Assembly: GCA_944389185.1 (NCBI GenBank)
Contig: CALXLL010000001.1
Coordinates: 93,014-157,013, forward strand
Origin: an uncultured Alphaproteobacteria bacterium
GTDB taxonomy: Bacteria > Pseudomonadota > Alphaproteobacteria > Rs-D84
DNA length: 64,000 bases
Direction: 5' to 3'
Numbering within the stretch: the stretch's first letter is position 1; each line of letters opens with the position of its first letter. Positions 12,599 to 55,848 of this stretch are shown here, in pieces. Under the pieces are notes generated by a model. It was not told the origin of the DNA. It made no database searches and was given only the letters and a program-made list of their open reading frames with translations. Position numbers and translations under genes: made by a program.

Positions 12599-12921
12599 AA
12601 GTGCGGAAATCTGGCAAAAAAACGAATCGTTGTCAAAAAATAAATGTTGAAAAATCGTTCAACATTTTGTTGAAAACTTAATTTAATCTTATAACTTATT
12701 TTACGTATCCAAAACCGATTGAGAAACATCAATCACAAACGCGAGAGAGTAAAAAGTAGGAATCTTAACTTTGTAACGTTTAAATAAAATACGATTACAA
12801 AGAATTAAGTAACAAGAAACATAGATTACTGAACGTTCAGTTAATTTAGCGTTTCTGTGCAGGTGTTTTTTACACTCTTGTGCGGCAGGAAACTCTTTTA
12901 AGGAAGGAAAGGAGAAACGAC

Positions 12922-14291: not shown

Positions 14292-15476
14292 ATGAAAAAA
14301 ATATTTCTGCTGTTACCTGTTTTGTTTTTCTTTGTTCCAGGTTTAGTTATGGCTGGACCAGGTTGTGTTCCAGTGTCTTGTAACGAATCCACGGGTAATG
14401 ATAGATTAAATGCGGATACTATTGATATATCTAGACAAGATAGGAAACAAGCGTCTAGGTGTTATATTTGTGAAGATGGTTATTGTGAAGATGGAGACGT
14501 AGTTTATAATAAAACTTTTACCAAGTTTGCCGTATGTAAACAATCTTGGGGGTGGATTGGAGATGATAAATGGCAAGAGTTTACACCGCAGTATTGCACG
14601 GATAAATTAGATTTAAGTAGTGCTGCAACACCCGAATCTGGGTTGCAGAAAATGTGGTTGATTGAAGGGGTTTCTTATGAAGATGGTCAAGTTAGTGCTT
14701 TAGGTGGTAAATCTTATGCGTCTGGTAATAATATTTGCTATTATTATGATTGTCCAGATGGAAGTTATTTGGATTCTTCTTCTAAAAAGTGCGTTTTTCA
14801 ACAACTTGAAACGCCAGCAACAACTGTAGCCGCAACAGCCCCAAAGCCAACTATAACACCGACCGTTCCAACGTCGCCTGTAACATCATCTAAACCGACG
14901 CCGGCCATCACAGATTCGCCAAATGAAAACAATAAAAATGTTGAGTTCTCTTGTCCAGATTCAGATTTACAAAACATTTATATGTGGCAAAGTCAATATG
15001 CAACAAATCCTGAGATTTCTTCTCTTATATCAAACATTTTGACATATTGTTTTGAAACAAATGATATAGAAGAATATCAGTTTAGAACTTATATGGATAG
15101 ATTAAAAGTTTTGATAGAAGTTCAACAAAATTTGGCTGATGAAGCTCAAAAAGCTTCAGAATTAGCTAAGCAACAACAGTTATTACAACAGCAGAACGCG
15201 GCAAAAGAACGCATAGCATCTATCGTGAATAATTTAGACCAAAAAGCTACTAATTTTAAGCGATCGGATTGGAAAAATGAAGATGGTAAGTTTAATACTT
15301 CCCGCCTTATATCAGATTCAGTCGCTGGCGTCGTATTGGGAACTGCTGGCGGACTTATTACCAGCAGCGTAGTTAAAAAAAGCCAAGTTAAATCCGGTTT
15401 CGAAGACCTTAATTGTGCTATCGGCGGTCAAGTCGTGGCAGGTTGGGGCGATGAATTCCTTGTCGGTATCCAATAA
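14292..15476 (+). CDS. secreted Cys-rich / Pro-Thr linker / Q-rich coiled-coil protein with C-terminal glycine zipper
   Basis: Signal peptide; many Cys in the N-terminal third; PTITPTVPTSPVTSSKPTP linker; QQQLLQQQ coiled coil; GVVLGTAGGLITSSVV near the C-terminus. Confidence 0.4.
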   Translation: MKKIFLLLPVLFFFVPGLVMAGPGCVPVSCNESTGNDRLNADTIDISRQDRKQASRCYICEDGYCEDGDVVYNKTFTKFAVCKQSWGWIGDDKWQEFTPQYCTDKLDLSSAATPESGLQKMWLIEGVSYEDGQVSALGGKSYASGNNICYYYDCPDGSYLDSSSKKCVFQQLETPATTVAATAPKPTITPTVPTSPVTSSKPTPAITDSPNENNKNVEFSCPDSDLQNIYMWQSQYATNPEISSLISNILTYCFETNDIEEYQFRTYMDRLKVLIEVQQNLADEAQKASELAKQQQLLQQQNAAKERIASIVNNLDQKATNFKRSDWKNEDGKFNTSRLISDSVAGVVLGTAGGLITSSVVKKSQVKSGFEDLNCAIGGQVVAGWGDEFLVGIQ

Positions 15477-20992: not shown

Positions 20993-21457
20993 ATGATACA
21001 AGAATCTGGTCGTTCAATGATTGAAATGTTAGGCGTTTTGGCAATTATGGGGGTTATAACCGTTGGTGCCGTTGGTATGATTTCTGCTGCTATGCGTATG
21101 CAAAAGCGAACAGCAGTTAATGATGAAATAATTCAAATAGTGTCCAGCGTAAGACAATTGCTGGGTGAATACGACGATTATTCAAATATAAACGGTTCTA
21201 CTATTTTTGGTGCTATTGGAATGTCTAATAAAAACCCATACGGTGGGACTTATGAATTAGCAGTTAATCCGTCAAATACTCAGCAATTCGTTGTTTCTAT
21301 TACTGGTTTAACACAGTCTGATTGCGAGTTCTTTACAACAAAAGCTTGGGAAGGATCTGTTGGGTATACTATGTCTGACGGTAAAACAGGCGGCGCGGTC
21401 GGTGATTGCAGCCAGCAGAACGGTAAAAACACCGTTCAAATCACTTATGGTGATTAA
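20993..21457 (+). CDS. type IV pilin-like protein (class III signal peptide)
   Basis: MIQESG|RSMIEMLGVLAIMGVITVGAV: short leader ending in Gly, Glu at +5, then a hydrophobic helix; 154 aa. Confidence 0.45.
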   Translation: MIQESGRSMIEMLGVLAIMGVITVGAVGMISAAMRMQKRTAVNDEIIQIVSSVRQLLGEYDDYSNINGSTIFGAIGMSNKNPYGGTYELAVNPSNTQQFVVSITGLTQSDCEFFTTKAWEGSVGYTMSDGKTGGAVGDCSQQNGKNTVQITYGD

Positions 21458-24612: not shown

Positions 24613-25731
24613 ATGGAATTTTCAGTCTTTCGCCAAGTTTTAATTCGTGCGCTGGGACATATGCAATCTATCGTTGAAAAACGTGCTACTTTGCCTATCT
24701 TAATGAATGTTAAATTAGAGGTCGCAGATAATCTTATTTTGTCGGCAACAAATGTAGACTTGGAATTAGTAGAGCATGTAAATGCAGATATTACTTTGGG
24801 TGGCAGAACAACTGTTCCCGTCCAAATGCTTTATGATATTGTTCGTAAGCTGCCAGATGACGCCGAGATTTCTTTTAAACAATCCGGTGATCAGTTAGTC
24901 GTTTCAAGCGGACGTGCTGTTTTCCGTTTACCAACTTTGCCAGCAGAAAACTTCCCTGCAATGGCGGGCAGTAATTTGACAACTAAGTTCCAAATGACAA
25001 CAGGTGATTTGGCACATTTAATTAATCAAACTAAGTTTGCTATACCAACTGATGACGTTCGCTATCATTTGGGTGGTATTTTCTTCCATATTTCTGATGA
25101 TAGTGGTGAAAAGAAGTTAACTGCAGTGGCAACGGATGCTCAACGTATGGCTTTGTGTGCTATGCCGGCACCTGCTGGAAGTGCAGAAATGCCTTCTGTA
25201 ATTTTACCGCGCAGAGTCATAGGGGAATTGTCAAAGCTTCTTGAAGATGCCAACGTTGATGATGTTATGGTCGAATTGTCTGATACAAAGGCAAGATTTA
25301 CGGTAGGTTCTGCTACTTTGACAAGTAAGTTGGTTGATGCGCAGTTCCCTAATTATCGCGTTGTTATACCGAAAGGTAACGATAAAATTGCCGTTATGGA
25401 TAGAAAGCAGTTCTTAAATGCTGTTGACTTGGTTTCTGTTGCCAGCGTAGATAAGACAAAGTCTATTCAATTGACGTTTTCTATGAATAAGTTGGTCGTT
25501 AACGCTTCAAGTCCTGATGCCGGAACAGCTACACAGGAATTGGACGTTGAATATAACGGTGATACAGAGTTTACCGTAACGTTTAATGTAAAGTTTTTGA
25601 TGGACGTAGCAGGGCAAGTAGAAGGTGATTCGTTCCAGATGGAAATGCAAGATCCTTTATCGCCTACTATCATCAAATCAACCGATAAAAATACTGATTC
25701 TTTGTTTATATTGATGCCTATGCGAATGTAA
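24613..25731 (+). CDS. dnaN: DNA polymerase III beta sliding clamp
   Basis: 372 aa; MEFSVFRQVLIRALGHMQSIVEKRATLPILMNVKLE... is typical DnaN; the ORF ends PMRM. Confidence 0.85.
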   Translation: MEFSVFRQVLIRALGHMQSIVEKRATLPILMNVKLEVADNLILSATNVDLELVEHVNADITLGGRTTVPVQMLYDIVRKLPDDAEISFKQSGDQLVVSSGRAVFRLPTLPAENFPAMAGSNLTTKFQMTTGDLAHLINQTKFAIPTDDVRYHLGGIFFHISDDSGEKKLTAVATDAQRMALCAMPAPAGSAEMPSVILPRRVIGELSKLLEDANVDDVMVELSDTKARFTVGSATLTSKLVDAQFPNYRVVIPKGNDKIAVMDRKQFLNAVDLVSVASVDKTKSIQLTFSMNKLVVNASSPDAGTATQELDVEYNGDTEFTVTFNVKFLMDVAGQVEGDSFQMEMQDPLSPTIIKSTDKNTDSLFILMPMRM

Positions 25732-35654: not shown

Positions 35655-36374
35655 ATGAAAAAGGTTTTATTAGCCGTTGTTTTTGGGTCTGTGTTTTTTT
35701 GCGCAAATTCTTGGGGGGCGGCAAGTTATTTACAAAGAGATGGCAATTGGGGTTATCAGGTTACTTATGATTATACAGATAAAGCAAAAACAGGTTGGTA
35801 TGTCGGTGGACGTGCAGAACTTAGTTTGTTAAATTGGACGAATAAATATGATACCGATTGGCCTGGTGCGGTCGGGGCTTTTGAAGAAGATAAGTATTCT
35901 TTTGAACCGGTTTTCGGTGGAAGTTTGTTTGCCGGTAAAAGATTTGCTTATTTTTGGCGTGCTGAATTAGAAGCTGGTTATCTGGGGTATTTTGAAGATA
36001 AAGATAATATAGCAGAGTTTTCTTTGTCTATTCCATATATGACGGCAAATATTTACTATGATTTTATAAATAATTTGTATGTTGGGGCAGGAGTCGGCGT
36101 TGCGTTGCCTATGACTACATTAGACGGTTCATTCTTTAAATATGAAAAGCGTCAGGATATTGCGGTTGCGCCTATGGTTGCTTTAATGTTGGGGTATTCT
36201 TACGAGTTGGATGATAATCTGGTATTAGATTTGCGCTATCGTCTGTCTGGTATGACTGGTATTACTCATAGAGTAGATATGGAAGAATATAGCGGAACAG
36301 TAAGATACTTTGAAAATAAAATAGATTTTATTTTGGATAATTCGTTTTCTATTGGTTTAAGGTATGAATTTTAA
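35655..36374 (+). CDS. outer-membrane beta-barrel protein (OmpW/OmpA-like)
   Basis: Signal peptide; alternating amphipathic strands; C-terminal GLRYEF with terminal Phe. Confidence 0.55.
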   Translation: MKKVLLAVVFGSVFFCANSWGAASYLQRDGNWGYQVTYDYTDKAKTGWYVGGRAELSLLNWTNKYDTDWPGAVGAFEEDKYSFEPVFGGSLFAGKRFAYFWRAELEAGYLGYFEDKDNIAEFSLSIPYMTANIYYDFINNLYVGAGVGVALPMTTLDGSFFKYEKRQDIAVAPMVALMLGYSYELDDNLVLDLRYRLSGMTGITHRVDMEEYSGTVRYFENKIDFILDNSFSIGLRYEF

Positions 36375-36395
36375 GAAAAAAGTTGATAACTGGTA

Positions 36396-36425
36396 TTGAC
36401 GCGATTCGGTAAAATATGATATTAT
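36396..36425 (+). promoter_or_regulatory. candidate sigma70 promoter for the tail-fibre-repeat gene array
   Basis: TTGACG-18-TATTAT, ~20 nt upstream of the ATG at 36446. Confidence 0.3.
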
Positions 36426-36445
36426 AAGAACGGCAGAGAGAAGAA

Positions 36446-38119
36446 ATGAAAAATAAATTAAAAATATCAATTTTAAGTCTTGTATGCGTGCTTGGCGTAG
36501 GTTTTGCAGATGCACAAGCGGCTTCTTCCGTAAGAACTTTGGGCGGGACAGGTACTTATGTAAGTGCGTCCAGTGCGGCAAATGCGGAAAGTGGTGGAAC
36601 GGTTGCTTCTATTGCTAGGGGCGGGTCCGTTCGTGTAAGCCCAACGACTTCTCAGACTACTACTTCAAGCTCTTCTGAATCAAGTTCCGGAACGCGCGTT
36701 GTTAATGTGCCTCGTTTATCTATTGGACAATATTTGGGTGGTGGAACTTCTGTAAGTGGTGGAAGCTCTTTAAGGCCTCAGACGCCCAGCACAGGTTCTT
36801 CTTCTGGTGGCGGAACAATAGATCCTGGGCTTACATCGGAATTGCAGCGTGATGTCGATCAATTAAAACGTGATTTTTCTGATTTGGCAGATAGTAACGA
36901 CAGAATAACAGAAGCTTTGAATGAAAAGCAAAATATTTTATTACCGGATTCGGAAGGTTTTATTGATATAGACCAAAATACAAATGAAATATATCTTAAT
37001 ATAGAACCTTTAAAAGAAGCAATTAGCGATATTGTCGGGCAGTCAGGGCGTGAAATAGAAATAGGGCACGACACCAACCAGTTACAATGGCACTATGTAG
37101 ATGACCCGAATTGGAATACTATAATTTCGTTCGCTGATTTGGCTGCTTATGGTAATTATGCGGTTAGTGATGATTTGGCTGATTTTGTTAAAGCAGATGA
37201 AATGGAAACTGCTATATCGCAAGCTATTACAAATGCTGCGACAAACTACGCTACTAAATCTGATTTAGATTTGAAAGCAGATAAAGCGGATTTAGATTTA
37301 AAAGCAAATGTGGCAGATGTTTATACAAAATCTGAAACCTTAAACAAGCAAGAAATAGCTGATGCTATTGCAGAAGCTGTGACAGACGGGACTGTAGATT
37401 TAACTGGTTATGCAAAGACAGATTATGTTGACGCTCAGCTTGGTTTAAAGGCAGACGCTGATGACGTTAGTGATTTGTCTGGTCGTGTTGATTTGGTAGA
37501 AAGTGGCGTTCAGGCATTGGGGGTAAGTGTTGGAACTGCCCAAGACACTGCCGAAGCCGCTAAAACAGAGGCAGATAAAGCAAATCAAGCCTTGACAACT
37601 AAAGCAGAACAAAGTGATTTGACAGCGCTTGAAACTAGGGTTGGGGCAAATGAAGCTTCTATTACAGGCTTGAATAATAAGATAGGTTCAGATGAATTAG
37701 AAACTACTTCCAAGCAGATAGTCGGGGCCATTAATGAAATAAAGCAGAAAGCAGATAGCTTGCCAAACGACGATAATTTTGAAGAAATGAATCAGAAAAT
37801 AACAAATATAGAATCAAAAGTAGATACCGCCGTTACAAGTATCGATAGTAAGGCTGATACTAGTTATGTTGATGAAGAATTAGCCAAAAAGGCAAACGAG
37901 GCCGATTTAGGTTTGTTGGCTAAGAAAAATCAGGTTGTAGATGCAGATATTGCAGATGGTGCCGAGATTTCCAAAGCAAAACTGTCTGCTGAAGTTCGTC
38001 AAAGTTTAGCTAATGCGGATTCGGCGGTCAATATGGAAGGTGCCGGTCCAAATATGGTCTTGGGGACAGACGAAAACGGCGACAAAGTCTGGTATGAAAT
38101 AGTAGATATTAAAGAGTAG
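36446..38119 (+). CDS. secreted repeat protein, paralog 1 of 4 (Ser/Thr/Gly-rich linker plus tail-fibre-like and coiled-coil repeats)
   Basis: Signal peptide; TTSQTTTSSSSESSSG low-complexity region; repeats KSDLDLKADKADLDLKANVADVYTKSE; same strand and family as the next three genes. Confidence 0.6.
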   Translation: MKNKLKISILSLVCVLGVGFADAQAASSVRTLGGTGTYVSASSAANAESGGTVASIARGGSVRVSPTTSQTTTSSSSESSSGTRVVNVPRLSIGQYLGGGTSVSGGSSLRPQTPSTGSSSGGGTIDPGLTSELQRDVDQLKRDFSDLADSNDRITEALNEKQNILLPDSEGFIDIDQNTNEIYLNIEPLKEAISDIVGQSGREIEIGHDTNQLQWHYVDDPNWNTIISFADLAAYGNYAVSDDLADFVKADEMETAISQAITNAATNYATKSDLDLKADKADLDLKANVADVYTKSETLNKQEIADAIAEAVTDGTVDLTGYAKTDYVDAQLGLKADADDVSDLSGRVDLVESGVQALGVSVGTAQDTAEAAKTEADKANQALTTKAEQSDLTALETRVGANEASITGLNNKIGSDELETTSKQIVGAINEIKQKADSLPNDDNFEEMNQKITNIESKVDTAVTSIDSKADTSYVDEELAKKANEADLGLLAKKNQVVDADIADGAEISKAKLSAEVRQSLANADSAVNMEGAGPNMVLGTDENGDKVWYEIVDIKE

Positions 38120-38139
38120 GGTTTTAAAAGGTGGCCTAA

Positions 38140-39861
38140 ATGAAGAAGAATAGCGCGATATTTCTGGGGATAACGGGTTTATTAGTTTTTGCAGATAGTA
38201 TGTCTTATGCTGCAACTAAAAAAATAGCTTCTCAGTCATATGTTGATAGTAGAGAATCAGAGATATTAAATGAAGTACAAAACACTTATGAAACAAAAGA
38301 AAATGTTAGTGCTATAAGTCAGAAGATTACAGACTTAGGAAATCAAATATCTGATCCTACTGATGGTTTGTCCGCTAAAATAGATAAGGTGGCTGGTGAT
38401 TTATCAACAACGCAAGGAACCGTTGCCACAATAAGCGGCGATTTAGAAAATAAAGAAGACGTTGGAAACAAAGCGACGAGTATTACTGTTGAGAATCAGG
38501 CATCACCTACGGCTTATCCTTCTGTAAGTGCAATAGTTCAATGGACGAACGATAAAATATTAGAATTATCGGAAGAAGGTTTACCTGTAAGCCCTGACAA
38601 TATCGGTGCAGGTTCTATTACAGAAGATAAATTAGATGCGGCGGTTGTAAATAAAATAGACGGCAAAGAAGATAAGACTAATAAAGTTATCACGCTTCGT
38701 GATTCTGCCGTGGCAACTGATACGGCGTATCCGTCAGAGAAAGCAGTTGCAACTGCTTTGGAAGGTAAGGCAGATATTGCAGATTTAGATTCTTATGCGA
38801 CCACAGATTCTTTGGCTACGGTTGCAACGACCGGTTCTTATAATGATTTAATTGATGCACCAGATATACCAGAAGCAGTCGTTGTTGATGAAGCAATTAC
38901 AGCACAAGGAACGAACCCCGTTCAAGGTAAAGCTGTATATGAAGCTTTGGCGGGTAAACAACCGGTTGGTGATTATGCAACAAACACAGAATTAAGTGAT
39001 GTTAGTTCTACTGCAGAATCTGCGCAAAGTGACGCTACTTCGGCATTGAGTGCAGCGGCAGAAGCAAAGACTTTGGCCGGCACCAAAGTTACTGCAAATG
39101 AAGATATAGTCGCAGGCACTGGAACAAAAATAACTTATGATGCGAAAGGTTTGGTAACAGGTAGCGCAAATCTTGAAGTTGCGGATTTACCTGATGCTAT
39201 ACCGACAAGCAAGATAACCGGTTTAGCCGATGTCGCAACAAGTGGTTCTTATAATGATTTAGCAGATACCCCTGTTATACCAGACGCAGTCGTTGTTGAC
39301 GAGACAATTACAGCGCAAGGAACGAACCCTGTTCAAGGTAAAGCTGTATATGAAGCTTTGGCGGGTAAGCAGGCTGTTGGTGATTATGCAACAACTGATG
39401 AATTGTCTGCATATGCGACTACTGAAGACATTGCAAAAATGGAAAATGTCGATAATAAGGCTGCTTCTATTACATCTGAAAATCAGTCTTCGGTTACAGC
39501 TTATCCTTCTGTTGGTGCAATAGTTCAATGGACGAACGATAAAATATCAGAACTATCAGAAGAAGGTCTGCCCGTAAGTCCAGACAATATCGGTGCGGGT
39601 TCTATTACAGAAGATAAATTGGATGTGGCGGTTGTAAATAAAATAGATTCTAAGGAAGACAAAACAAATAAAGTTTCACAAATTGACGATACTAACAAAA
39701 CAGACGAGACGAAATATGTCAGCGTCAAAGCTGTTGCGGACTACGTTATACCAAAGCCTAGCAAAGATTGCACTGCTCAATCTGGGTTATGTGTTCTTTC
39801 TGCTACGACCGATGGTGGTTTTGCTTGGGTGAATGTTACTGCCCCGGCTGGTGAAAATTAA
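38140..39861 (+). CDS. secreted phage-tail-fibre-repeat protein, paralog 2 of 4
   Basis: Signal peptide; TKKIASQSYVD; repeats AYPSEKAVATALEGKAD, ATTGSYNDLIDAPDIP and NPVQGKAVYEALAGKQ; two internal cassette duplications; C-terminal two-Cys module. Confidence 0.65.
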   Translation: MKKNSAIFLGITGLLVFADSMSYAATKKIASQSYVDSRESEILNEVQNTYETKENVSAISQKITDLGNQISDPTDGLSAKIDKVAGDLSTTQGTVATISGDLENKEDVGNKATSITVENQASPTAYPSVSAIVQWTNDKILELSEEGLPVSPDNIGAGSITEDKLDAAVVNKIDGKEDKTNKVITLRDSAVATDTAYPSEKAVATALEGKADIADLDSYATTDSLATVATTGSYNDLIDAPDIPEAVVVDEAITAQGTNPVQGKAVYEALAGKQPVGDYATNTELSDVSSTAESAQSDATSALSAAAEAKTLAGTKVTANEDIVAGTGTKITYDAKGLVTGSANLEVADLPDAIPTSKITGLADVATSGSYNDLADTPVIPDAVVVDETITAQGTNPVQGKAVYEALAGKQAVGDYATTDELSAYATTEDIAKMENVDNKAASITSENQSSVTAYPSVGAIVQWTNDKISELSEEGLPVSPDNIGAGSITEDKLDVAVVNKIDSKEDKTNKVSQIDDTNKTDETKYVSVKAVADYVIPKPSKDCTAQSGLCVLSATTDGGFAWVNVTAPAGEN

Positions 39862-39892
39862 AACAAACAACAAACTAAATAAAGGAAAAAAA

Positions 39893-41071
39893 ATGAAAAA
39901 ATTAACCGCAACAATTTTTGTGGCTTTATTAACGGCTGTATCTACTGGTGCTGCAAAGGCAGATATCGCTTCCAGTGGATATGTTGATGAAAAAGTTGGT
40001 GCTGTGTCGGCTACTGTAGCTACTAAGGCTGATCAATCAGATGTTGATACTTTAAGCGCAAGTGTTGAAACTAACACAGAAGATATTACAGCTTTGGAAG
40101 GACAAGTTGCTTTGAAAGCAAATTCTGCTGATGTTTATACAAAAACAGCTGCTGATGGTAAGTTCCAAACATTAGAGAATATATCTGATTCTGCAAATGC
40201 TGTTGTTACAGATAAAGATAGTGAAGTTAAATATCCTTCTGTAAAAGCTGCCCATGCAATCGCAACAGCAGCAGTTGATGGCGTAACTGGCAATGTGTCT
40301 GGTTTGACAACTCGTGTAGAGACAATAGAAGATGAAATGGATACTTATGGAAATATAGTCACAACTAATAAAGAATCCTATGCAACAGCTGCACAAGGTG
40401 CTTTGGCAGACACAGCTTTGCAAAAAGAAGGTGCTTTAACACAAGGTAATTTATTAACAACTGATGCTGCCGGTAAAATTATAGATGCTGGTGCAAAGGG
40501 GGCTTTGGCAAATAAAAATACAGTTTCCGCAGCTGATATAGATGCAAATGCTGTTACAACAGAAAAAATCTTAAATGCGAACGTTACAAGAGCTAAATTG
40601 GCGACAGATGTAACAACATCTTTGGATAAAGCTGATACTGCATTGCAAGAGGCAAGTTTGGAAGGCTATGTGACAAAAGAACAGGCAGATTCAGACTATG
40701 CACCCAAAGCAACTGAAACAAAGGCTCAACAAGCTTTAACGGATATTGGCACAAAGGCTAATTTGACAACAGAGAAAAAAGATAACTTAGTAAATGCAAT
40801 TAACGAAGTTGATGCTGCATTGGATACAAAAGCCGATAGCAGTGCTGTTGCAGATATGTTGACTAAGACAGAAGCGTCTAGCACATATGAAACGAAAACG
40901 AATGCGCAAGCAACATATGAAACGAAAACGAATGCGCAAGCAACATATATACCAAAACCAGGTGTTAACTGCACAGAAGCTGGGGCAAAGTGCGTGTTGG
41001 TAACAAATGGAACAGACTTTACTTGGGAAGATATCGCAAGAGGAACATCTGAAGCAGGTGCTGAACAATAA
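39893..41071 (+). CDS. secreted phage-tail-fibre-repeat protein, paralog 3 of 4
   Basis: Start at MKKLTATIF preceded by aaaggaaaaaaaa (the ORF-track start at 39833 overlaps the previous gene); ADIASSGYVD; 30-bp tandem repeat; C-terminal IPKPGVNCTEAGAKCVL module. Confidence 0.65.
   Translation: MKKLTATIFVALLTAVSTGAAKADIASSGYVDEKVGAVSATVATKADQSDVDTLSASVETNTEDITALEGQVALKANSADVYTKTAADGKFQTLENISDSANAVVTDKDSEVKYPSVKAAHAIATAAVDGVTGNVSGLTTRVETIEDEMDTYGNIVTTNKESYATAAQGALADTALQKEGALTQGNLLTTDAAGKIIDAGAKGALANKNTVSAADIDANAVTTEKILNANVTRAKLATDVTTSLDKADTALQEASLEGYVTKEQADSDYAPKATETKAQQALTDIGTKANLTTEKKDNLVNAINEVDAALDTKADSSAVADMLTKTEASSTYETKTNAQATYETKTNAQATYIPKPGVNCTEAGAKCVLVTNGTDFTWEDIARGTSEAGAEQ
40883..40948 (+). 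repeat. perfect 30-bp tandem repeat (2 copies plus a 6-nt partial) inside paralog 3, encoding TYETKTNAQA x2
   Basis: acatatgaaacgaaaacgaatgcgcaagca occurs twice back to back, then acatat. Confidence 0.85.
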
Positions 41072-41080
41072 AGCCTTGTA

Positions 41081-41115
41081 ATACATCAGGAATCTGTTCT
41101 TGATTCCTGATGTAT
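41081..41115. other. perfect 14-bp-stem hairpin after paralog 3, followed by an A-run rather than a T-run
   Basis: atacatcaggaatc-tgttctt-gattcctgatgtat then aaaaaaag. Confidence 0.5.
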
Positions 41116-41181
41116 AAAAAAAGTTAAAATAAAGATGATAATAAAAAGATAGATAGTTAATTGTAGGACTTTATAGCGGAA

Positions 41182-42441
41182 ATGATAAAACGAAAGGTTG
41201 CTTTTTTCTCTGTTGGTGTTTTAAGCTTGATGATTCCTTGGTATAGTGCAACAGCTGATATTGCTTCAAAAAGTTATGTGGATCAAGAGGTAGGAAAAAA
41301 GCTAACTGCTGTCACAAGTAATACAACAGGCAGCGGTAATGTAGTGTCTGCCGTAAGTGCAACAGGCGGAACAATTACTGCAACAAAGGGTATTACCGCA
41401 GAAGAGGTTTCTAATAAAGTTAATACAATTCGTGATTCTGCTGCTGCTACTGATATTGCGTATCCATCTGAAAAGGCGGTTGCAACGGCTTTGGAAGGCA
41501 AAGCTGACAGTGCAGATTTGTCGGATTTAGCAACAAAAGCAGAATTAGAAAATTATGCAACTACAGAATCTTTGGCAACAGTCGCAACTACTGGTTCTTA
41601 TAACGATTTATCTGATAAGCCCGTTATACCGGAAGGCGTTGTTGTTGATGAAGTGATTACTGCAGAAGGAGTAAATCCAGTTCAAGGAAAAGCAGTATAT
41701 GAAGCTTTGGCTGGTAAGCAACCTGTGGGTGATTATGCTACAAATACAGCTTTAAGCTCTGTCCAGGCTACGGCGGAATCGGCACAGGATGATGCAACTG
41801 ATGCAATGCAAGCAGTGGATGGCAAAGTTTCAAAATCTCAAGGAACAGGAGCCGCAAATAAAGCTTTAGTTACAGATGCTTCTGGAAACGTGACTGCTGG
41901 AACGATTTCGTCTGCTATGATTACAGATGGAACGATAACAAATGCTGATATTTCAAGCTCTGCGGCAATTGATCAATCTAAAATATCAGGGTTAACAACT
42001 GCTTTGGCCGGGAAAGCCAATACCGAAGATTTAGCAGAAGTTGCAACAACCGGTTCGTATAACGATTTGACAGATAAACCTTCAATACCTGCTGCAATAA
42101 CGGTTGATACTGCTTTAAGTTCTACCAGCATAAATCCCGTTCAAAATAAAGTGATAAATACTGCTTTGGCCGGGAAGTTATCCACAACTGGGACCGCGGC
42201 AAAAGCAACAGCAGATGCAAACGGTAATAGTATAGTTGATACTTATGCTACTAAAACTCAATTATCAAGTTATGTTACTACTACTACTTTGAACGGTTTG
42301 GACAGCACAAGTTCCGGAACAGGCGCTGTCGTTACAGGGGTAAGTCAGACAAACGGTAAGGTGGCTGTAACTAAGGGTAACGTAAAAATACCGGTAGGAT
42401 CTGAAAGTGCTACTACTTATGCTACAATATGGATAGAATAA
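41182..42441 (+). CDS. secreted phage-tail-fibre-repeat protein, paralog 4 of 4
   Basis: Signal peptide; ADIASKSYVD; shares the ~190-bp ATTGSYNDL...NPVQGKAVYEALAGKQPVGDYATN cassette with paralog 2. Confidence 0.65.
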   Translation: MIKRKVAFFSVGVLSLMIPWYSATADIASKSYVDQEVGKKLTAVTSNTTGSGNVVSAVSATGGTITATKGITAEEVSNKVNTIRDSAAATDIAYPSEKAVATALEGKADSADLSDLATKAELENYATTESLATVATTGSYNDLSDKPVIPEGVVVDEVITAEGVNPVQGKAVYEALAGKQPVGDYATNTALSSVQATAESAQDDATDAMQAVDGKVSKSQGTGAANKALVTDASGNVTAGTISSAMITDGTITNADISSSAAIDQSKISGLTTALAGKANTEDLAEVATTGSYNDLTDKPSIPAAITVDTALSSTSINPVQNKVINTALAGKLSTTGTAAKATADANGNSIVDTYATKTQLSSYVTTTTLNGLDSTSSGTGAVVTGVSQTNGKVAVTKGNVKIPVGSESATTYATIWIE

Positions 42442-42460
42442 TCAAAATAATATAAACAAA

Positions 42461-42490
42461 AAGACGCCTTTTCAGCGTCTCTTTTTTTTT
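42461..42490. terminator. bidirectional rho-independent terminator (array end / dedA convergent)
   Basis: agacgc-cttttca-gcgtct hairpin plus a 9-nt T-run; an A-run precedes it. Confidence 0.5.
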
Positions 42491-45397: not shown

Positions 45398-45778
45398 ATG
45401 TCGCTGTTTAAATATTTAAAAAATAAAAAAATTAAAGATATAAAACAAGATATAAATCAGTATAGATTTTTGGGTTATATACAAAATGGTGCTAAAAAGG
45501 CCTATTTCGCAGCGTTAAAAAAAGTAGCTGTTGTATCTTTGAAAGATCCAGAAGATTATAAAATATGTATATTTGAAAGCGTCCCTTTGGTCGCAGAACC
45601 AGCAAATATTACTTATTGCAAAGATTTTGATCATAAAAATATGATTAATAATTGTAAAAATACTAATTGCCCGTGTTTTGAAGATAATCGTAATTTGTTT
45701 GATGCGGTCAGGTATTTAAAACACATTAAGGAAGTTAAACGCAATTTTTGGAAAGAAAAGTTAGCTTGTCAAAAATAA
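45398..45778 (+). CDS. small Cys-rich hypothetical protein (paralog A)
   Basis: 126 aa, starts MSLFKY, C-terminal C..C.C cluster; paralogous to the next ORF; RBS aaaggg. Confidence 0.4.
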   Translation: MSLFKYLKNKKIKDIKQDINQYRFLGYIQNGAKKAYFAALKKVAVVSLKDPEDYKICIFESVPLVAEPANITYCKDFDHKNMINNCKNTNCPCFEDNRNLFDAVRYLKHIKEVKRNFWKEKLACQK

Positions 45779-45790
45779 AGGTGTTAAGAA

Positions 45791-46204
45791 ATGTCTTTAT
45801 GGAAATATATAATATCAACGCCAAAACAAGCAATTTATGCTGATTATAAAAAATATAAAGATTTATGTAATGATATAAATAACGCAAAAATAAATTGTTT
45901 AAATCTTAAAATTAGTTTGGTTATAGACTTGGCATATGAAACAGATAAAGATCTGTTAAAAAAACAAAATGGTTGCATAATTATTAAATCTTTTGAAAAA
46001 CCAGATGCTGTGCAAAAACTTCCGGGAATAATAAGCGTTTTTAGTAATAATTGTGAATTTTTTAATGAAACTAGATGTTGCGATAAGGAAACGTGCTCGT
46101 TTTATAATAAAAATGCTGAATATTTTAAAGCTAAGAGAGCTTGTCGTGCGCTGGAAAAGCAAAAAAGAATATATTGGAAACAAAAGTTTGCTAATGCCAG
46201 GTAA
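45791..46204 (+). CDS. small Cys-rich hypothetical protein (paralog B)
   Basis: 137 aa, starts MSLWKY, CCDKETCSFYN cluster; shares the C-terminal K(R/Q).(F/Y)WK.K(L/F)A ending with paralog A. Confidence 0.4.
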   Translation: MSLWKYIISTPKQAIYADYKKYKDLCNDINNAKINCLNLKISLVIDLAYETDKDLLKKQNGCIIIKSFEKPDAVQKLPGIISVFSNNCEFFNETRCCDKETCSFYNKNAEYFKAKRACRALEKQKRIYWKQKFANAR

Positions 46205-46237: not shown

Positions 46238-47236
46238 ATGGCACATCAGTTTTATTTTAATCCTTATATTTTGGATAACCTTCCGGCCCCAAGTTCTGGC
46301 TTTGACGTAGTGCAAGATGTTTCAGAACCAAGACTTCGTATGTATATAACAAGTCGCGGTATTAAAAGCTTTTTTGTTCGTAAAAGAGTGCACGGTAAAG
46401 ATAAAAGAATAATTATAGGTAATTACCCAGAAATAGATATAGAAACCGCAAGAAGTGCAGTTCAAGATGTTTTAGATAAAGCTTTGCAAAAAGTTCCCGT
46501 TAATCGCCATAAAATATCATTTAAAAAAATAGTTGATATTTATATGTTAAAGCATGTAAGACGAACAGGGGGCGCAAAAGAAAAATTATATAGAGCTATT
46601 AATCTTCATTTGTTTAGTCTGTTTGATAAGACCCTTGTTGATATTACGACCGAAGACGTGAAAAGCGTTATAGATAAAATATCTGGACCTGTAATAGCAG
46701 GACGTATGCAAGAGCTTTTAAGAAGTATATTTAACTATGCTATAGAAACAGGGTATGCAAAAAATAACCCAGTTGATAATCTGCCAAAGCGAAAACATGA
46801 AATAAAAAAATCTCCACTAAATAAAAGCTTGTTCAATAGATTATTGCGATTAATAAAAAAGCAAGAATCTCAAAATATCCGTTCTGCTTTTTTGATGCTG
46901 ATTTATGGTTTCGCACCTAAGTCAAAAATATTTTCTATGCAATGGAAAGATTTGGATTTTAATCACTATACTTGGAATGATTTCCCTTTGTCCGATGCTG
47001 CGGTTGTGTTATTGCAAGATTTACCTCAGAATGGACGTTGGGTATTCCCTGGGCGTGGACGCGGACACTTAACAGACCCACGTATAGCGTGGCGCAAAAT
47101 AGTTGACACTATCGGGGTAAGTAATCTTACTATGGATGACTTATATAAATACTTGATGCGACAGTTAACCTGGACAGCAAATAAAGAAGATTTACGATTT
47201 AATATGAATGATTTACTGAATAATCTTATAGACTAA
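46238..47236 (+). CDS. P4-type tyrosine integrase remnant (arm-binding N-terminus intact, catalytic residues substituted, C-terminus truncated)
   Basis: N-terminus GFDVVQDVSEPRLRMYITSRGIKSFFVRKRVHGKDKRIIIGNYPEIDIETARSAV matches the DUF4102-type integrase arm domain. The catalytic-Arg box reads GFAPKSKIFSMQWKDLDF (R replaced by P), the HxLR box reads TMDDLYKYLMRQ, and at 332 aa the ORF ends before the catalytic Tyr. Confidence 0.45.
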   Translation: MAHQFYFNPYILDNLPAPSSGFDVVQDVSEPRLRMYITSRGIKSFFVRKRVHGKDKRIIIGNYPEIDIETARSAVQDVLDKALQKVPVNRHKISFKKIVDIYMLKHVRRTGGAKEKLYRAINLHLFSLFDKTLVDITTEDVKSVIDKISGPVIAGRMQELLRSIFNYAIETGYAKNNPVDNLPKRKHEIKKSPLNKSLFNRLLRLIKKQESQNIRSAFLMLIYGFAPKSKIFSMQWKDLDFNHYTWNDFPLSDAAVVLLQDLPQNGRWVFPGRGRGHLTDPRIAWRKIVDTIGVSNLTMDDLYKYLMRQLTWTANKEDLRFNMNDLLNNLID

Positions 47237-50885: not shown

Positions 50886-50962
<77 letters not shown>

Positions 50963-50987
50963 GAAATACACACTAAAACGTCATAAA

Positions 50988-51019
50988 AACAAGTAATTTA
51001 CAAACTTGTTCATTTTTTT
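50988..51019 (+). terminator. hairpin plus T-run downstream of tRNA-Pro
   Basis: aacaagt-aatttacaa-acttgtt followed by cattttttt. Confidence 0.4.
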
Positions 51020-51041
51020 AGCTTTTTTATTTTGTGTTTGT

Positions 51042-51050
51042 TGTTATAAT
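51042..51050 (+). promoter_or_regulatory. extended -10 element (TGnTATAAT) upstream of the methyltransferase gene
   Basis: TGTTATAAT lies 36 nt upstream of the ATG at 51087. Confidence 0.35.
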
Positions 51051-51086
51051 GAAAAGCGCAACTTTTGTATATTCTAAGGGAAAAAT

Positions 51087-52220
51087 ATGATTGATTTGTT
51101 TGGCGATAATAATTTTATAGATTTTAGCTCGGATTTTTATACTAAGCACCTAATTACATACATCGGAAACAAAAGGGCGTTATTACCTTTTATAAACTCT
51201 GGTATAGAAACTGTAAAAAAAAGCTTGGGTATTGATAAACTATTTTGCTTAGATGGTTTTGCTGGTAGTGGTGTAGTATCAAGATTGTTAAAACACCATT
51301 CTAGAATTTTGCATTCTAATGACATAGAAAATTATTCTTATATAATTAATCAATGCTATTTATCAAATAAAAGTGATATCGATGAAAAATATATAAAAAA
51401 TATATTGGATATATTAAATAACATACCAGAAAAAGATTTATATGAAGGCTTTATAACCAAGAATTATTCTCCTAAAAATGACGACGACATAAAAGAAGGA
51501 GAAAGGGTTTTTTATACACATAAAAATGCCCTTATTATAGATACTATTAAAAAAATGATATTTGAAACTATACCGAAAGATAAGCAGAAGTTTTTTTTAA
51601 GTCCTTTACTTATAAATGCCTCTGTTCATACAAACACTTCAGGTGTTTTTAAAGGTTTTCATAAGAAAAATGGTATAGGTCATTTTGGGGGGGCAGGCGA
51701 AAACGCATTGACAAGAATAAAAGGAAAAATATTTTTAGAAAATCCTGTGTTTAGCGAAGAAGAATGTGAAGTAAGAGTTTTTAATCAAGATATAAATGAG
51801 CTAATAAAAAAAACAGAAAATCAGAATTATGATTTAGTTTATTATGATCCACCTTATAATCAGCACCCTTATGGATCTAATTATTTTATGTTAAATATTA
51901 TAGCGAATCCTTCAGAAGAAATAGAAATTCAAACAGGCGTAAGTGGAATAGCAAAAGACTGGTATAAATCTGCTTATAACAAAAAAGATGCTGCAATAGT
52001 TGCTTTGGAAGATTTGATAAAGAATACGAAGTCTAAATATATTTTGATATCTTATAATAATGAAGGAATAATACCATTTGATACTTTTAAAGATATATTA
52101 AATAGATATGGGAAAGTTTCTGTTTTAGAAAAAGATTATAATACATATAGGGGCTGTAGGAATTTAAATAATAGGGATATAAAAGTAAAAGAATTATTAT
52201 GGATTCTTGAAAAGAGGTAA
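51087..52220 (+). CDS. Type II N6-adenine DNA methyltransferase, alpha class (Dam-like motif order)
   Basis: YIGNKRALLPFI (Dam-like motif X), AdoMet motif I DGFAGSGVV, catalytic motif IV YYDPPY. 377 aa; very AT-rich. Confidence 0.75.
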   Translation: MIDLFGDNNFIDFSSDFYTKHLITYIGNKRALLPFINSGIETVKKSLGIDKLFCLDGFAGSGVVSRLLKHHSRILHSNDIENYSYIINQCYLSNKSDIDEKYIKNILDILNNIPEKDLYEGFITKNYSPKNDDDIKEGERVFYTHKNALIIDTIKKMIFETIPKDKQKFFLSPLLINASVHTNTSGVFKGFHKKNGIGHFGGAGENALTRIKGKIFLENPVFSEEECEVRVFNQDINELIKKTENQNYDLVYYDPPYNQHPYGSNYFMLNIIANPSEEIEIQTGVSGIAKDWYKSAYNKKDAAIVALEDLIKNTKSKYILISYNNEGIIPFDTFKDILNRYGKVSVLEKDYNTYRGCRNLNNRDIKVKELLWILEKR

Positions 52221-52224
52221 AAAA

Positions 52225-52923
52225 ATGAGTGACTCTGATTTATTAAGAAAGACTAGAAAAAATACTGTTATAAATCAAATTTCTAAATATCAAGAGAAAG
52301 AAATAAAAAGGGCTTTGGTAAACGTTGTTGAAAAAATACAAAAAGAATTTCCTAAAATTAGATTAAACTTTAAACCTACTTCTAAATTAAGTTTTATCGT
52401 AAAACATTTAAGGAAGCTTTTTCCTGATATCGATTTTCATTATAAATTTGATTCGTCTTTTATTTCTCCGGATGGCGGTTTTTTAAATCTTGAAGATTCT
52501 GAAGGTAATCTTTATCCTGTATTAATATCAGAAGTTAAAAATCAGGGGACTAATGATAAAAGACAAAAAGAAGGACTGTGCAAACAATCAAAAGGTAATG
52601 CCATAGAACGATTAGGCAAAAATGTTATTGGTTTAAGAGCTTATTTATTAAATGAAGGAATATTCCCATTTGTGTGTTTCGGATATGGATGTGATTTTGC
52701 AGAAGATTCTTCTATTCTTGATAGGGTTATAACAATAGGAATGTTTGGTGAATTGAATAAAACATACTTGGTTAATCAGGGACTGTTCAATAGGGGAAGT
52801 TTTTATTTTAGAGATAGCAAATGGTCGGTAGAAGAAATGACAGAGATAATGTATGATATTTGTAAAAGAAGTATACATTATTATTTTGCAAAATATGGAG
52901 AAGACATATTTTTAGAAAAATAA
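52225..52923 (+). CDS. EcoRI-family Type II restriction endonuclease
   Basis: Alignable by eye to R.EcoRI: FISPDGGFLNLEDSEGNLYPVLISEVKNQG vs SIKPDGGIVEVKDDYGEWRVVLVAEAKHQG (Asp91, Glu111, Lys113 equivalents conserved); GNAIERLGKNV vs GNAIERSHKNI; C-terminal KWSVEEMTEIMYDI vs EWDSKIMFEIMFDI. Start at the ATG preceded by AAGAGG, 4 nt after the methyltransferase stop (ORF track uses TTG at 52207). Confidence 0.8.
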   Translation: MSDSDLLRKTRKNTVINQISKYQEKEIKRALVNVVEKIQKEFPKIRLNFKPTSKLSFIVKHLRKLFPDIDFHYKFDSSFISPDGGFLNLEDSEGNLYPVLISEVKNQGTNDKRQKEGLCKQSKGNAIERLGKNVIGLRAYLLNEGIFPFVCFGYGCDFAEDSSILDRVITIGMFGELNKTYLVNQGLFNRGSFYFRDSKWSVEEMTEIMYDICKRSIHYYFAKYGEDIFLEK

Positions 52924-54208: not shown

Positions 54209-54976
54209 ATGAGAAAAATAGTTTTGACTTCTTTGGTCGCAGTATTTGCTGTATCAGGTGCTCAGGCTGCTAATGTTATAAATGATAATCCGTTATATCG
54301 CCCGGGGGCAAATCAATTTTACAGCATGACTTCATTGTTGTCACATTCTGAAAACGCAGATTCTTGGGCGTTAGCAGAAAAATTCGGTTATGGAATAACA
54401 GATAAAGCTGCTATTTATATGAATACCGCTTTTAATGAATCTAACTGGTTTGATGGCATGGGTTGGAATAGCTTTGAAATCGGTGCAGATTATCGCTTGT
54501 TAGATGAAATGAACTGGAAAATTGATGCGTATGCTTTGTATGAATTAGGTCCAGTTTGGGGCGACCATATGTCTTTCCTAGATAAAAATTATACATCATA
54601 TAATTGGGGTATCGGTGTTAGAGCTGGTTATATGACAGAAATGTGGACGGTTGCAGGTCATGTAGAGTTTAATTATTTGAATAGCGAATCTTTCAATTGG
54701 GGTGACGATGGCTTCCATTCAATATTGGCTGGCGTAGACGGATTCTTATCTTTGAATCAAAATTGGGCACTGTTAATTGGTGCTGAATATACAGGCTGGT
54801 TAGATGACGAATTTGAAAACGCTGGATCGTGGGCCGCAAAGTTCGGTGCAAATTATAACATTGATGCTAATAAGTTCATCGGTGCTTATATATCTGGTGA
54901 AATGTCACATAGAACCGGTGATTGGGAAATCGCTAATGGTTTTGGTTTTGGCGCTAAATTCGGTATCCAATTCTAA
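54209..54976 (+). CDS. outer-membrane beta-barrel protein (porin-like), unknown family
   Basis: Signal peptide ending AQA; aromatic-rich alternating strands; C-terminal GIQF. Confidence 0.5.
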   Translation: MRKIVLTSLVAVFAVSGAQAANVINDNPLYRPGANQFYSMTSLLSHSENADSWALAEKFGYGITDKAAIYMNTAFNESNWFDGMGWNSFEIGADYRLLDEMNWKIDAYALYELGPVWGDHMSFLDKNYTSYNWGIGVRAGYMTEMWTVAGHVEFNYLNSESFNWGDDGFHSILAGVDGFLSLNQNWALLIGAEYTGWLDDEFENAGSWAAKFGANYNIDANKFIGAYISGEMSHRTGDWEIANGFGFGAKFGIQF

Positions 54977-55000
54977 AAACTTAAAAGTATTAAATATTAA

Positions 55001-55027
55001 AATCCGACCAAAAGGTCGGATTTTTTT
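55001..55027 (+). terminator. rho-independent terminator
   Basis: aatccgacc-aaaa-ggtcggatt hairpin plus ttttttt. Confidence 0.55.
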
Positions 55028-55092
55028 GTAAGATTTGCTTCCTGTTAAGTATTTTTATTAAAAATGTAAAAATATTTTTACGGGTTATTCAT

Positions 55093-55848
55093 ATGAAAAA
55101 TATTTTTCTTATTATTTTATGTCTTGTAATTGTTTCAAATAAAGCATTTGGAAATATATTAGATGTAAGCAGATTGTCGGATGAAAACGAGTTTTCAGCA
55201 AGCTTTGGCGTTGGATTTAAAACCGGTCTTAATAAGGCAGGAACAGCAGAAACTGACTTAGGTGCAGGTAAAGTAAAAGAATTGGGCTTAGAATTAGATT
55301 ACTCTTTTACTGATAATTTATCGTTTTCTTTTTCTACTGATAATTCTTATGCGGATTCGCAGATAGGAATAGATTATAAAATATTAAAGACTTTCCCTTT
55401 AAAACTACATTTTTTTAGTGATTATGGCATAGCTTGGACTAAAAAGGCCGCAGACGGCAAAAGAATAGGGCAGAATAATTTGGATGCAGGGTTTCGGTTT
55501 CATGGAATCGCTTGGGACGATTTTCAGTGGGCCGTTAAGTTTACAGGACAATATGTTTTTGCAGAAAGCGGTAATTTTTGGAACTTTGGCACTTCTTTAG
55601 AAACTATGTATTACTTTAAAGAAGATATGGCGGTAAAAATAGACTTTGAATACAATTTTGAAAATACAAATAAACCAATAATACAGTATGATAAATCGCT
55701 ATCCGTTGGTTTAATATATAATATCAATGAAAAAGCAGCGGTGCACCCTTATTTAAAATACCACTTTAAAACCGCAAATAATAAAAATGATATTTTGCAA
55801 CCAGACGATTTTTGGAAGTTGGCCTTGAAGTTTTCAATAGAGTTTTAG
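55093..55848 (+). CDS. outer-membrane beta-barrel protein, unknown family
   Basis: Signal peptide; beta-strand periodicity; C-terminal SIEF. Confidence 0.5.
   Translation: MKNIFLIILCLVIVSNKAFGNILDVSRLSDENEFSASFGVGFKTGLNKAGTAETDLGAGKVKELGLELDYSFTDNLSFSFSTDNSYADSQIGIDYKILKTFPLKLHFFSDYGIAWTKKAADGKRIGQNNLDAGFRFHGIAWDDFQWAVKFTGQYVFAESGNFWNFGTSLETMYYFKEDMAVKIDFEYNFENTNKPIIQYDKSLSVGLIYNINEKAAVHPYLKYHFKTANNKNDILQPDDFWKLALKFSIEF

Follow-up and report, generated by a model that had tools for sequence, protein, structure and literature searches.

Surface fibres built on the plan of phage tail fibres have been described in Bdellovibrio, whose MAT proteins are signal-peptide-bearing, phage-like surface trimers that bind prey glycans (Caulton et al. 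2024; PMC10769870). Here, an array of four genes, P1 to P4, is described from an uncultured alphaproteobacterium of the Rs-D84 lineage. The array lies in a stretch of 64,000 nucleotides, referred to as the window, which corresponds to positions 93,014-157,013 of contig CALXLL010000001.1 (assembly GCA_944389185.1). P1-P4 are interpreted as fibres or adhesins that a partner-dependent bacterium exports via Sec and displays on its surface, probably as trimers and in analogy to the MAT fibres, a reading to which we give a probability of roughly 0.6.

Related systems

Like the MAT proteins, the array is chromosomal, signal-peptide-bearing, phage tail-fibre-like and found in a bacterium that depends on other cells. 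Both systems also combine a conserved cell-proximal N-terminus with swappable mosaic modules, and the recognition of other cells, proposed here for the array, would be a further likeness. The MAT proteins however have a beta-rich N-terminal domain of ~130 amino acids (aa), beta-prism or beta-helix shafts and variable C-terminal tips (PMC10769870), whereas in the array a motif of only 8-12 aa is followed by helices predicted in a low-confidence model, the C-terminus is conserved and the centre varies. An S74 chaperone is present in 13 of the 21 MAT proteins and missing from the array. In phmmer and hmmsearch runs against the Protein Data Bank (PDB) no MAT entry was matched; such entries, for example Bd2133 and Bd3182, were assumed from the paper to be present. 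Lastly, the array is one fixed four-gene operon, whereas the MAT proteins form a dispersed family of 21 members.

Trimeric autotransporter adhesins such as YadA and BadA are Sec-exported, have coiled-coil stalks with small beta motifs and are common in host-associated Proteobacteria. The array would share their Sec-exported fibrous architecture. However, Pfam and NCBIfam detect no YadA_anchor, head, neck or stalk domain in P1-P4, and the C-termini are modules of 30-60 aa, not barrels; a separate barrel gene, of the 8-strand type, lies upstream.

The foldon of phage T4 fibritin is a C-terminal element that follows a coiled-coil shaft; its ~30 aa comprise an IP.xP lead-in, a beta-hairpin and a conserved Trp. 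A C-terminal module of the array, IPKP..C......CVLS....G..AWVNVT, for which a hairpin is predicted, appears to resemble it. The module differs from the foldon in having an extra disulfide loop, and a profile made from it did not match foldon-containing PDB chains.

The four genes and their products

As the preliminary description of this DNA stated, four consecutive open reading frames (ORFs), all on the + strand, occupy positions 36446-42441:

36446..38119, + strand: P1, 557 aa, signal peptide aa 1-25
38140..39861, + strand: P2, 573 aa, signal peptide aa 1-24, N-terminal motif IASQSYVD, then a predicted helical segment, a mosaic centre and a two-Cys C-terminal module
39893..41071, + strand: P3, 392 aa from the MKKLT start (a longer ORF opens at 39833), signal peptide aa 1-23, IASSGYVD, then an Ala/Thr-rich shaft, a tandem repeat and a two-Cys C-terminal module
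41182..42441, + strand: P4, 419 aa, signal peptide aa 1-25, N-terminal motif IASKSYVD

Each protein has a single hydrophobic segment in the first ~25 residues, with a basic n-region, and none further along the chain. Small-x-small sites follow these segments (AQA/A, SYA/A, AKA/D and ATA/D). The Sec signal peptide proposed for all four is thus found in each as a hydrophobic segment plus an A/S-x-A site, by heuristic reading. The proteins are acidic, with a pI of 4.2-4.5, and have a high content of Ala, Thr, Ser and Asp. Cysteines in the mature chains are confined to the C-terminal pairs of P2 and P3.

P2, P3 and P4 share the post-signal motif IAS..YVD, which does not vary among orthologs. A motif scan located every repeat motif that had been quoted where it was said to be: AYPSEKAVATALEGKAD occurs in P2 and P4, YPSVKAAHAIATAA in P3, and both NPVQ(G/N)K...ALAGK and AT(T/S)GSYNDL.D.P.IP occur twice in P2 and twice in P4. 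The two-Cys module IPKP...C......CVL is also present, as claimed, at the C-termini of both P2 and P3; in an alignment of 33 sequences its C, CVL and W are invariant. The spacing of the repeats did not hold up. A hallmark period of ~40 aa had been proposed, and the KAV-type motifs lie 59-137 aa apart.

The description of the four proteins as paralogs is correct in part. P2 and P4 are clearly related (52% identity over 300 aa, E ~1e-74), and the claim fails for P1 and P3. Similarity between P2 and P3 is limited to the C-terminal Cys module (E 0.001) and that between P3 and P4 to the N-terminus (E 0.007), and pairwise comparison of P1 with P2, P3 and P4 gave no significant similarity. Against Pfam, P1 yields weak sub-threshold matches to coiled-coil families, LPP among them. 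The terminal modules and other internal features are as follows:

P1 mature N-terminus, + strand: SSVRxLGGxGTY, conserved among orthologs
P1, about aa 45-125, + strand: Ser/Thr/Gly-rich stretch, followed by a probable coiled-coil shaft
P1, aa 494-557 (37925-38116), + strand: conserved C-terminal module ending in VLGTDENGDKVWYEI
P2, 39748..39846, + strand: two-Cys C-terminal module (IPKPSKDCTAQSGLCVLSATTDGGFAWVNVTAP), a predicted beta-hairpin with pLDDT 81-89
P3, 40883-40948, + strand: 30-bp tandem repeat
P3, 40949-41035, + strand: two-Cys C-terminal module
P4 C-terminus, + strand: conserved module ending ...TNGKVAVTKGNVKIPVGSESATTYATIWIE, without Cys

Phage relatives of the repeats

A search of 5.8 billion proteins with P2 as the query recovered 976 relatives, mostly orthologs from related bacteria. 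Among them are proteins without a signal peptide that bear units of the Pfam family PTR (PF12789, phage tail repeat like), seven in P0034 and five in P0119, and a third, P0104, in which PTR units are combined with a Peptidase_S74 chaperone domain (PF13884). These three score 94-154 bits with the Pfam PTR model. P0034 is encoded on a phage-like contig together with dUTPase, helicase, RusA and Peptidase_G2 genes. P0035, which shares the KITYDxKGLVT unit of P2, comes from L032, a phage-like contig of 246 kb on which a prohead-protease domain is also encoded, and the P2 version of this unit, KITYDAKGLVT, also matches repeats in P0073.

A custom hidden Markov model (HMM) was built from 20 units taken only from P0034, P0104 and P0119 and was run with Z=1e6. 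It finds two matches each in P2 and P4, with independent E-values (i-E) from 1.4e-10 to 1.9e-17:

P2, aa 224-275 (38809..38964), + strand: PTR-type unit 1, i-E 1.4e-10
P2, aa 316-362 (39085..39225), + strand: KITYDAKGLVT unit, repeated many times in phage-contig proteins
P2, aa 360-414 (39217..39381), + strand: PTR-type unit 2, i-E 3.8e-14
P4, aa 130-181 (41569-41724), + strand: PTR-type unit 1, i-E 1.3e-11
P4, aa 284-338 (42031-42195), + strand: PTR-type unit 2, i-E 1.9e-17

The unit is ~55 aa long and reads (L)ATVAT(S/T)GSYNDL.DKP.IP...(S)TNPVQNKV...ALAGK. The second P4 unit is 75% identical to one of the P0104 units, and the phage units are 49-75% identical to the lead P4 unit. In IMG/VR, a pattern scan located at least 416 viral-contig stretches that code for the unit, with identities of up to 76%. 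When 1.84 billion cluster representatives were searched exhaustively with HMMER, 2157 matches were obtained. Those outside Rs-D84 mostly have no signal peptide; nearly all full-length Rs-D84 members of the family have one. The domains present in 59 scanned homologs from outside Rs-D84 are PTR, Mtd_N, head fibre, Peptidase_S74, Collar, Gp10_C and Phage_fiber_2. Because of the results with the PTR HMM, IMG/VR and the homolog domains, a phage tail-fibre origin of the P2 and P4 repeats, of the PTR type, is well supported. Tail-fibre-type repeats had been attributed to all four proteins; the attribution stands for P2 and P4, where the profile search that had been preset as a test detects them, and falls for P1 and P3. 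The best among the weak PHROGs matches of P1-P4 is that of P1 aa 494-544 to phrog_2012, a "minor tail protein" (E 2.5e-5).

The PTR phage proteins and P2/P4 have homologous ~55-aa units and are otherwise built differently. In the phage proteins, which lack a signal peptide and are encoded among other phage genes, 5-8 units with HTH(T/S) motifs stand in tandem, whereas P2 and P4 have two units each with other modules between them. The standard family models do not recognise the array proteins. P1-P4 have no match to the Pfam PTR model PF12789 at E<=1 (its gathering score is 27 bits), none to Peptidase_S74 PF13884 in Pfam and none in an NCBIfam scan. When 50,697 GenBank phages were searched with tblastn, P2 matched two records, through its KITYDAKGLVT unit, which are duplicates of one archaeal (Methanomassiliicoccales) virus; P4 gave no match, and the low-complexity filter probably masks the repeats.

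The earlier assignment to the lambda Stf or Phage_fiber_2 (PF03406) type is not supported, since no Pfam match is seen at E<=1. Lambda orf401 and orf314 compared with the array proteins by BLASTP gave a best E of 0.021-0.55 over short segments, with 0.38-0.55 over ~20 residues, and the likeness to Stf is limited to short motifs (..PKAV.. and ..ALAGKQP..). Two other candidates were set aside. A profile match to 9eg4, "orf16" of Legionella phage LME-1 (E 5.7e-4), comes from the AVT..KI repeats that orthologs carry and not from P2 of the window, and a HylP match on the motif KAD..VYTK.E is not significant (E 1.5). P0104 used as a PDB query gave nothing significant for the window proteins.

A conserved chromosomal operon

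The genes claimed to flank the array were found, an OMP_b-brl barrel gene upstream and a DedA/VTT protein gene downstream. The features around the array are:

35655..36374, + strand: outer-membrane (OM) beta-barrel gene, 239 aa, PF13505 OMP_b-brl, E 2e-7
36396..36425, + strand: array promoter, sigma-70-type, TTGAC[C/G], 17-18 nucleotide spacer, TG-extended -10
42458..42484, either strand: bidirectional terminator-like stem-loop in the gap between P4 and the convergent dedA, from a consensus scan only
46238-47236, + strand: integrase-like ORF, 332 aa, Arm-DNA-bind_3 and Phage_int_M, no catalytic-domain match

The promoter scores 10/12 with TG in the consensus scan, and together with an AGAGAGA ribosome-binding site it is conserved in an alignment of the barrel-P1 spacer from 20 loci. 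In this spacer (36375-36445 and 19 related loci) conservation reaches beyond the -35 hexamer (TTGACCCGATTCG), which hints at a regulator binding site overlapping the promoter.

Relatives of the locus are found in ~25 species-level genomes, labelled as uncultured Alphaproteobacteria, "Candidatus Enterousia" and uncultured Rickettsiales. The gene order in them is constant: tolB...ftsEX and pal (-), the OM barrel and P1-P4, then dedA (-), rbfA and lepA. All related loci that extend far enough have the barrel gene directly upstream of the array, and its product is a possible anchor of the array proteins. The four positions are distinct orthogroups in which the termini are conserved and the centres change fast. 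P1-type orthologs begin with SSVRxLGGxGTY and end in VLGTDxxGxxVWYEI. The P2 and P3 types have IASxxYVD after the signal peptide and P.P...C.A.S.LCVLS....G...WV.VT.P at the C-terminus, and the P4 type has an N-terminal IASxxYVD and a C-terminal ...GNVKIPVG......YATIWVE. Protein lengths range across species from about 200 to >1000 aa. Comparison of species gives identities of 56-91% for the flanking proteins and of 29-48%, mostly at the ends, for the array proteins; P2 orthologs can be aligned only at aa 1-170 and about 430-573.

The array had been said to have no prophage around it, and the context agrees. The rest of the window is housekeeping (a gatA-type amidase gene, ruvX, sufBD, plsY, dprA, dnaA, gyrB, dnaJ, uvrC, dnaN, ppa, efp, fba, fabF, fusA and tuf), apart from a small restriction-modification island and a secretin pair of the type IVb type, and synteny of the locus holds in the ~25 genomes. 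Pfam scans of ~45 window ORFs found no capsid, terminase, portal, tail tube or baseplate domain, and the precomputed annotation of the syntenic loci is in accord with a non-phage context. Of the statement that capsid, terminase, baseplate and integrase genes are all absent, the part on structural genes is right and the part on integrase is not, as the ORF at 46238-47236 is integrase-like. Many Rs-D84 genomes have a counterpart in this place, downstream of lepA, with 55-66% identity. Because it is syntenic in other species it is no prophage marker; it looks like a domesticated or degenerate recombinase, not the marker of a mobile element. The array is a lineage-specific chromosomal operon of gut Rs-D84/Enterousia.

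Some related loci depart from the common plan. Locus L011 (2324-3619) has an extra PTR-containing ORF between tolB and an acyltransferase gene, L028 (672-7706) has a five-gene array, and L027 (4421-9162) has a tandem duplication of P4-dedA-rbfA that may be an assembly artefact. The order of a barrel gene followed by fibre genes mirrors that of lambda lom followed by stf (orf401/orf314; L034, 66-3074).

Variation among strains

Several metagenomic loci have flanking proteins 98-100% identical to those of the window and are taken to come from the same or a very close species. Among such strains there are at least five in-frame array haplotypes, and the variability and cassette shuffling suggested in the preliminary description are strongly supported by this comparison. 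In L001, identity falls to 86% in P2, which has a 27-aa insertion, and to 90% in P3, while P1, P4 and all flanks are 99-100% identical. P2 alleles are 242, 573 or 600 aa long. The variable tracts and the direct repeats of P2 are:

38400..39400, + strand: main strain-variable tract, the P2 centre, 62-90% DNA identity to L001 (97-100% elsewhere)
40018-40117, 40318-40417 and 40717-40796, + strand: smaller variable P3 tracts, relative to L001
P2, aa 102-170 (38443..38649), + strand: direct repeat A1 (NK..YPSVSAIVQWTNDKI..LPVSPDNIG), partner of A2
P2, aa 432-499 (39433..39636), + strand: direct repeat A2, ~85% DNA identity to A1

Synonymous divergence (pS) between the window and L001 is 0.3-0.8 in the divergent tracts, reaching 0.5-0.8, and 0.003-0.03 in the flanking genes. 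The ratio of nonsynonymous to synonymous divergence (dN/dS) in the tracts is 0.2-0.5. Since synonymous divergence is near saturation, the tracts come from recombination and not from hypermutation; judged by these values, they are old imported sequence and not the result of recent point mutation. Simple gene conversion inside the locus was rejected, as no donor copy of >=95% identity is present in the window or in L001. A diversity-generating retroelement (DGR) target was also rejected. No reverse transcriptase is found among the scanned window ORFs, and the variation consists of indels, fusions and near-saturated synonymous tracts in the protein centre.

Other alleles show larger rearrangements. 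In L033, an in-frame fusion has made a single 640-aa gene of P1 and P2, and the junction joins KADKADL of P1 to the NYATT repeats of the P2 type; sequence of the KAD..DL type occurs in both genes. L033 stops ~500 bp after the fusion gene, and assembly errors can occur at repeats. The fusion protein is however found on two contigs, and a similar chimera of a P1 N-terminus and a P2 C-terminus (P0319) occurs in another lineage. In L115, P2 is just 242 aa long and has the sequence expected from recombination of A1 with A2, and P1 has gained a PTR unit; this locus is less certainly conspecific, with a partial ftsE 88% identical and DNA flanks ~97% identical. L116 has a P3 allele of 319 aa that is 45% identical and a P4 that is 85% identical. 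All variant alleles are intact ORFs that retain the signal peptide and both terminal modules. As read from these alleles, the variation is in-frame cassette shuffling inside fixed, conserved ends.

Proposed working

After Sec export and signal-peptide cleavage, the N-terminal motifs, SSVRxLGG in P1 and IASxxYVD in P2-P4, would dock to a conserved envelope partner. This could be the OM barrel, whose gene always adjoins the array, or the type IVb pilus/secretin system, whose genes lie in another part of the window. The shafts would be made of coiled-coil segments and phage modules, namely PTR and KITYDxKGLVT units in P2/P4 and a minor-tail-like module in P1. The C-terminal beta-hairpin modules may act as a foldon-like nucleus of oligomerisation, disulfide-bonded in P2 and P3, where the Cys pair would fit an oxidising, extracytoplasmic location. 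The exposed central cassettes would bind the surfaces of partner cells or host, or vary antigenically.

Homologous recombination between repeats, both inside a gene and across genes, swaps, duplicates, deletes and fuses the centres, and divergent alleles are imported into them. With recombining centres, conspecific strains would therefore display different fibres. This diversity may be upheld by selection from phages, host immunity or partner specificity. Rs-D84 genomes are <1 Mb, encode no flagella and lack most biosynthesis, and these bacteria are presumed to depend on other cells (PMC12306168). A hypervariable fibre operon fits this partner-dependent lifestyle.

In a bolder version, for which we would give low odds, P1-P4 would together make up a single composite appendage instead of being four alternative adhesins, much as four proteins form the long tail fibre of phage T4. 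Held by the barrel or the type IVb pilus via the N-terminal motifs, it would be a partner-attachment organ whose specificity is reprogrammed by cassette recombination.

Strength of the interpretation and alternative explanations

Several results weigh against the interpretation of P1-P4 as surface fibres. The signal peptides were read by rule of thumb and not with SignalP. No OM anchor, lipobox, autotransporter barrel or dedicated secretion gene was recognised in the operon, and no route across the outer membrane was identified. Structure prediction gave little: the AlphaFold2 monomer model of full-length P2, made with 119 homologs, has a mean pLDDT of 59 and a pTM of 0.20, and that of the C-terminal 144 aa of P2 has a mean pLDDT of 69 and is confident at the terminal hairpin only. 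Foldseek comparison of AlphaFold models with BFVD returned none at E<=0.001, and PDB sequence searches with P2, P4, a P2-family profile and a C-module profile found nothing significant. The phage link is also uneven. P1 and P3 do not match the custom PTR HMM, and among viral loci fetched with the PTR-type unit none matches them at E<1e-8, only P2 and P4 doing so; the weak phrog_2012 match is the sole phage link of P1. Finally, the variable middle lies between conserved ends, unlike phage and MAT fibres, in which the C-terminal tip varies. Because the centre varies instead of the tip, the binding site, if any, is not obvious.

An ordinary prophage, tailocin or gene transfer agent tail-fibre cluster, with P1-P4 as cytoplasmic components of a virion fibre, would explain the homology of the P2/P4 repeats to phage fibre repeats and the integrase-like ORF 4 kb downstream. 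Such an origin is hard to reconcile with export signals that are missing from the phage homologs, with the lack of capsid, terminase, portal, tail tube and baseplate domains among the scanned ORFs of the 64-kb window, with the placement of the locus between pal/OMP and dedA/rbfA/lepA in ~25 species-level genomes, and with an integrase-like gene that is syntenic across species and has no catalytic-domain match. It is largely refuted and can be regarded as essentially excluded. The proteins could instead remain in the envelope, as coiled-coil spacers or tethers similar to Lpp or the alanine zipper that work with Tol-Pal and the OM barrel. The array adjoins pal, with tolB nearby; P1 weakly matches LPP and other coiled-coil families; a precomputed match to PF11839 Alanine_zipper is on record for some P1 orthologs; and Sec export without an identified outer-membrane route would suit such a role. 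However, extreme diversity within a species and old imported alleles are typical of exposed molecules, the homologs are phage receptor-binding fibre proteins, and a size range of ~200 to >1000 aa is ill-suited to fixed periplasmic spacing, so that we consider tethers rather unlikely.

Surface exposure is also assumed by the idea of a variable coat or decoy, an antigenically variable surface or released layer that has no specific ligand and serves antibody evasion or the masking or mimicry of phage receptors. The consensus-like, conserved promoter suggests high expression, mosaic alleles occur among conspecific strains, and the variable part is central with no distinct tip domain, all of which speaks for such a layer. 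The fixed order of four orthogroups with conserved termini suggests an assembled structure instead, and a coat or decoy as the whole explanation appears unlikely. The two functions, coat or decoy and adhesion, are not mutually exclusive, and the data here do not separate them. Another idea draws on TcpF and CofJ, secreted factors that are recognised by a pilus minor pilin. P1-P4 would then be substrates or tip parts of a type IVb pilus or a type II-like machine, with the N-terminal motif read by a minor pilin and release or display via the secretin. The window does hold a TcpQ-like protein and a PilN-family secretin (6893-9466) and an ORF with a prepilin-like N-terminus, recognised by eye (20993-21457), and the motif at the predicted mature N-terminus of P2-P4 is invariant. 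But 15-29 kb separate these pilus genes from the fibre array, neither a minor pilin nor an ATPase or platform gene was identified, and the PDB searches revealed no sequence similarity to TcpF or CofJ. We regard this as very unlikely.

Other features of the window

The possible pilus components are:

6893-9466, + strand: TcpQ-like protein (PF10671, E 3e-18), then a secretin (PF00263)
20993-21457, + strand: prepilin-like ORF, 154 aa (MIQESG/RSMIEMLGVLAIMGVI, Glu at +5), no Pfam match at 1e-5

In NCBIfam the secretin is matched best by the model of the PilN-family type IVb pilus outer-membrane protein, at E 1e-71 but below the curated cut-off. The channel could serve a pilus, competence or secretion, and the fibre proteins might be exported through it. 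Together with the prepilin-like ORF the secretin suggests a type IV pilus or pseudopilus. In a survey of Rs-D84, type IV pilus genes were reported only for a different lineage, UBA9783 (PMC12306168).

Two ORFs on the + strand (10636-11475 and 14292-15476), for which there is no family match, begin with a signal-peptide-like segment, contain many Cys and have a Gly-rich hydrophobic stretch close to the C-terminal end; these may be further lineage-specific envelope or surface proteins. At 54209-55848 (+) are two neighbouring ORFs of ~250 aa with signal peptides and the ...F ends typical of OM beta-barrels, the first without a Pfam match at 1e-5 and the second read by eye. Two adjacent Cys- and Lys-rich paralogous ORFs of 126 and 137 aa (45398-46204, +) have no family match. 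They occur in 1-3 copies and are 20-37% identical between related genomes, compared with ~90% for the neighbouring lepA. At 50886-52923 a tRNA-Pro (CGG) gene is followed by an island of very low GC (0.27), probably a restriction-modification cassette that was acquired, which encodes an EcoRI-like endonuclease and a D12-class adenine methyltransferase.

The genes dnaA (12880-14211) and dnaN (24613-25731) are ~10 kb apart, with gyrB, dnaJ, uvrC and others between them, and the cumulative GC skew is lowest near 5-6 kb of the window. From this minimum and the position of dnaA and dnaN, the fibre operon lies ~25-30 kb from the probable replication origin.

Biological significance

The array family is invisible in annotation because it has no Pfam or NCBIfam model, and its members, where named in sources, are called "hypothetical protein". 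No description of the locus was found in the titles and abstracts of the Enterousia literature or in the Rs-D84 survey (PMC12306168). The array is the sole place in this region where conspecific strains differ radically.

The general idea that phage-fibre modules are reused as exported bacterial fibres is already known from Bdellovibrio. If the interpretation of P1-P4 is true, the array would add to the MAT fibres a second, independent instance in which Sec-exported proteins of a cell-dependent bacterium have recruited phage tail-fibre modules, with a different architecture of conserved ends and a recombining centre. The operon, 6 kb or ~0.7% of such a genome, is conserved in the ~25 genomes, has a near-consensus promoter and is a concrete candidate for the contact apparatus of the widespread gut Rs-D84/Enterousia bacteria.

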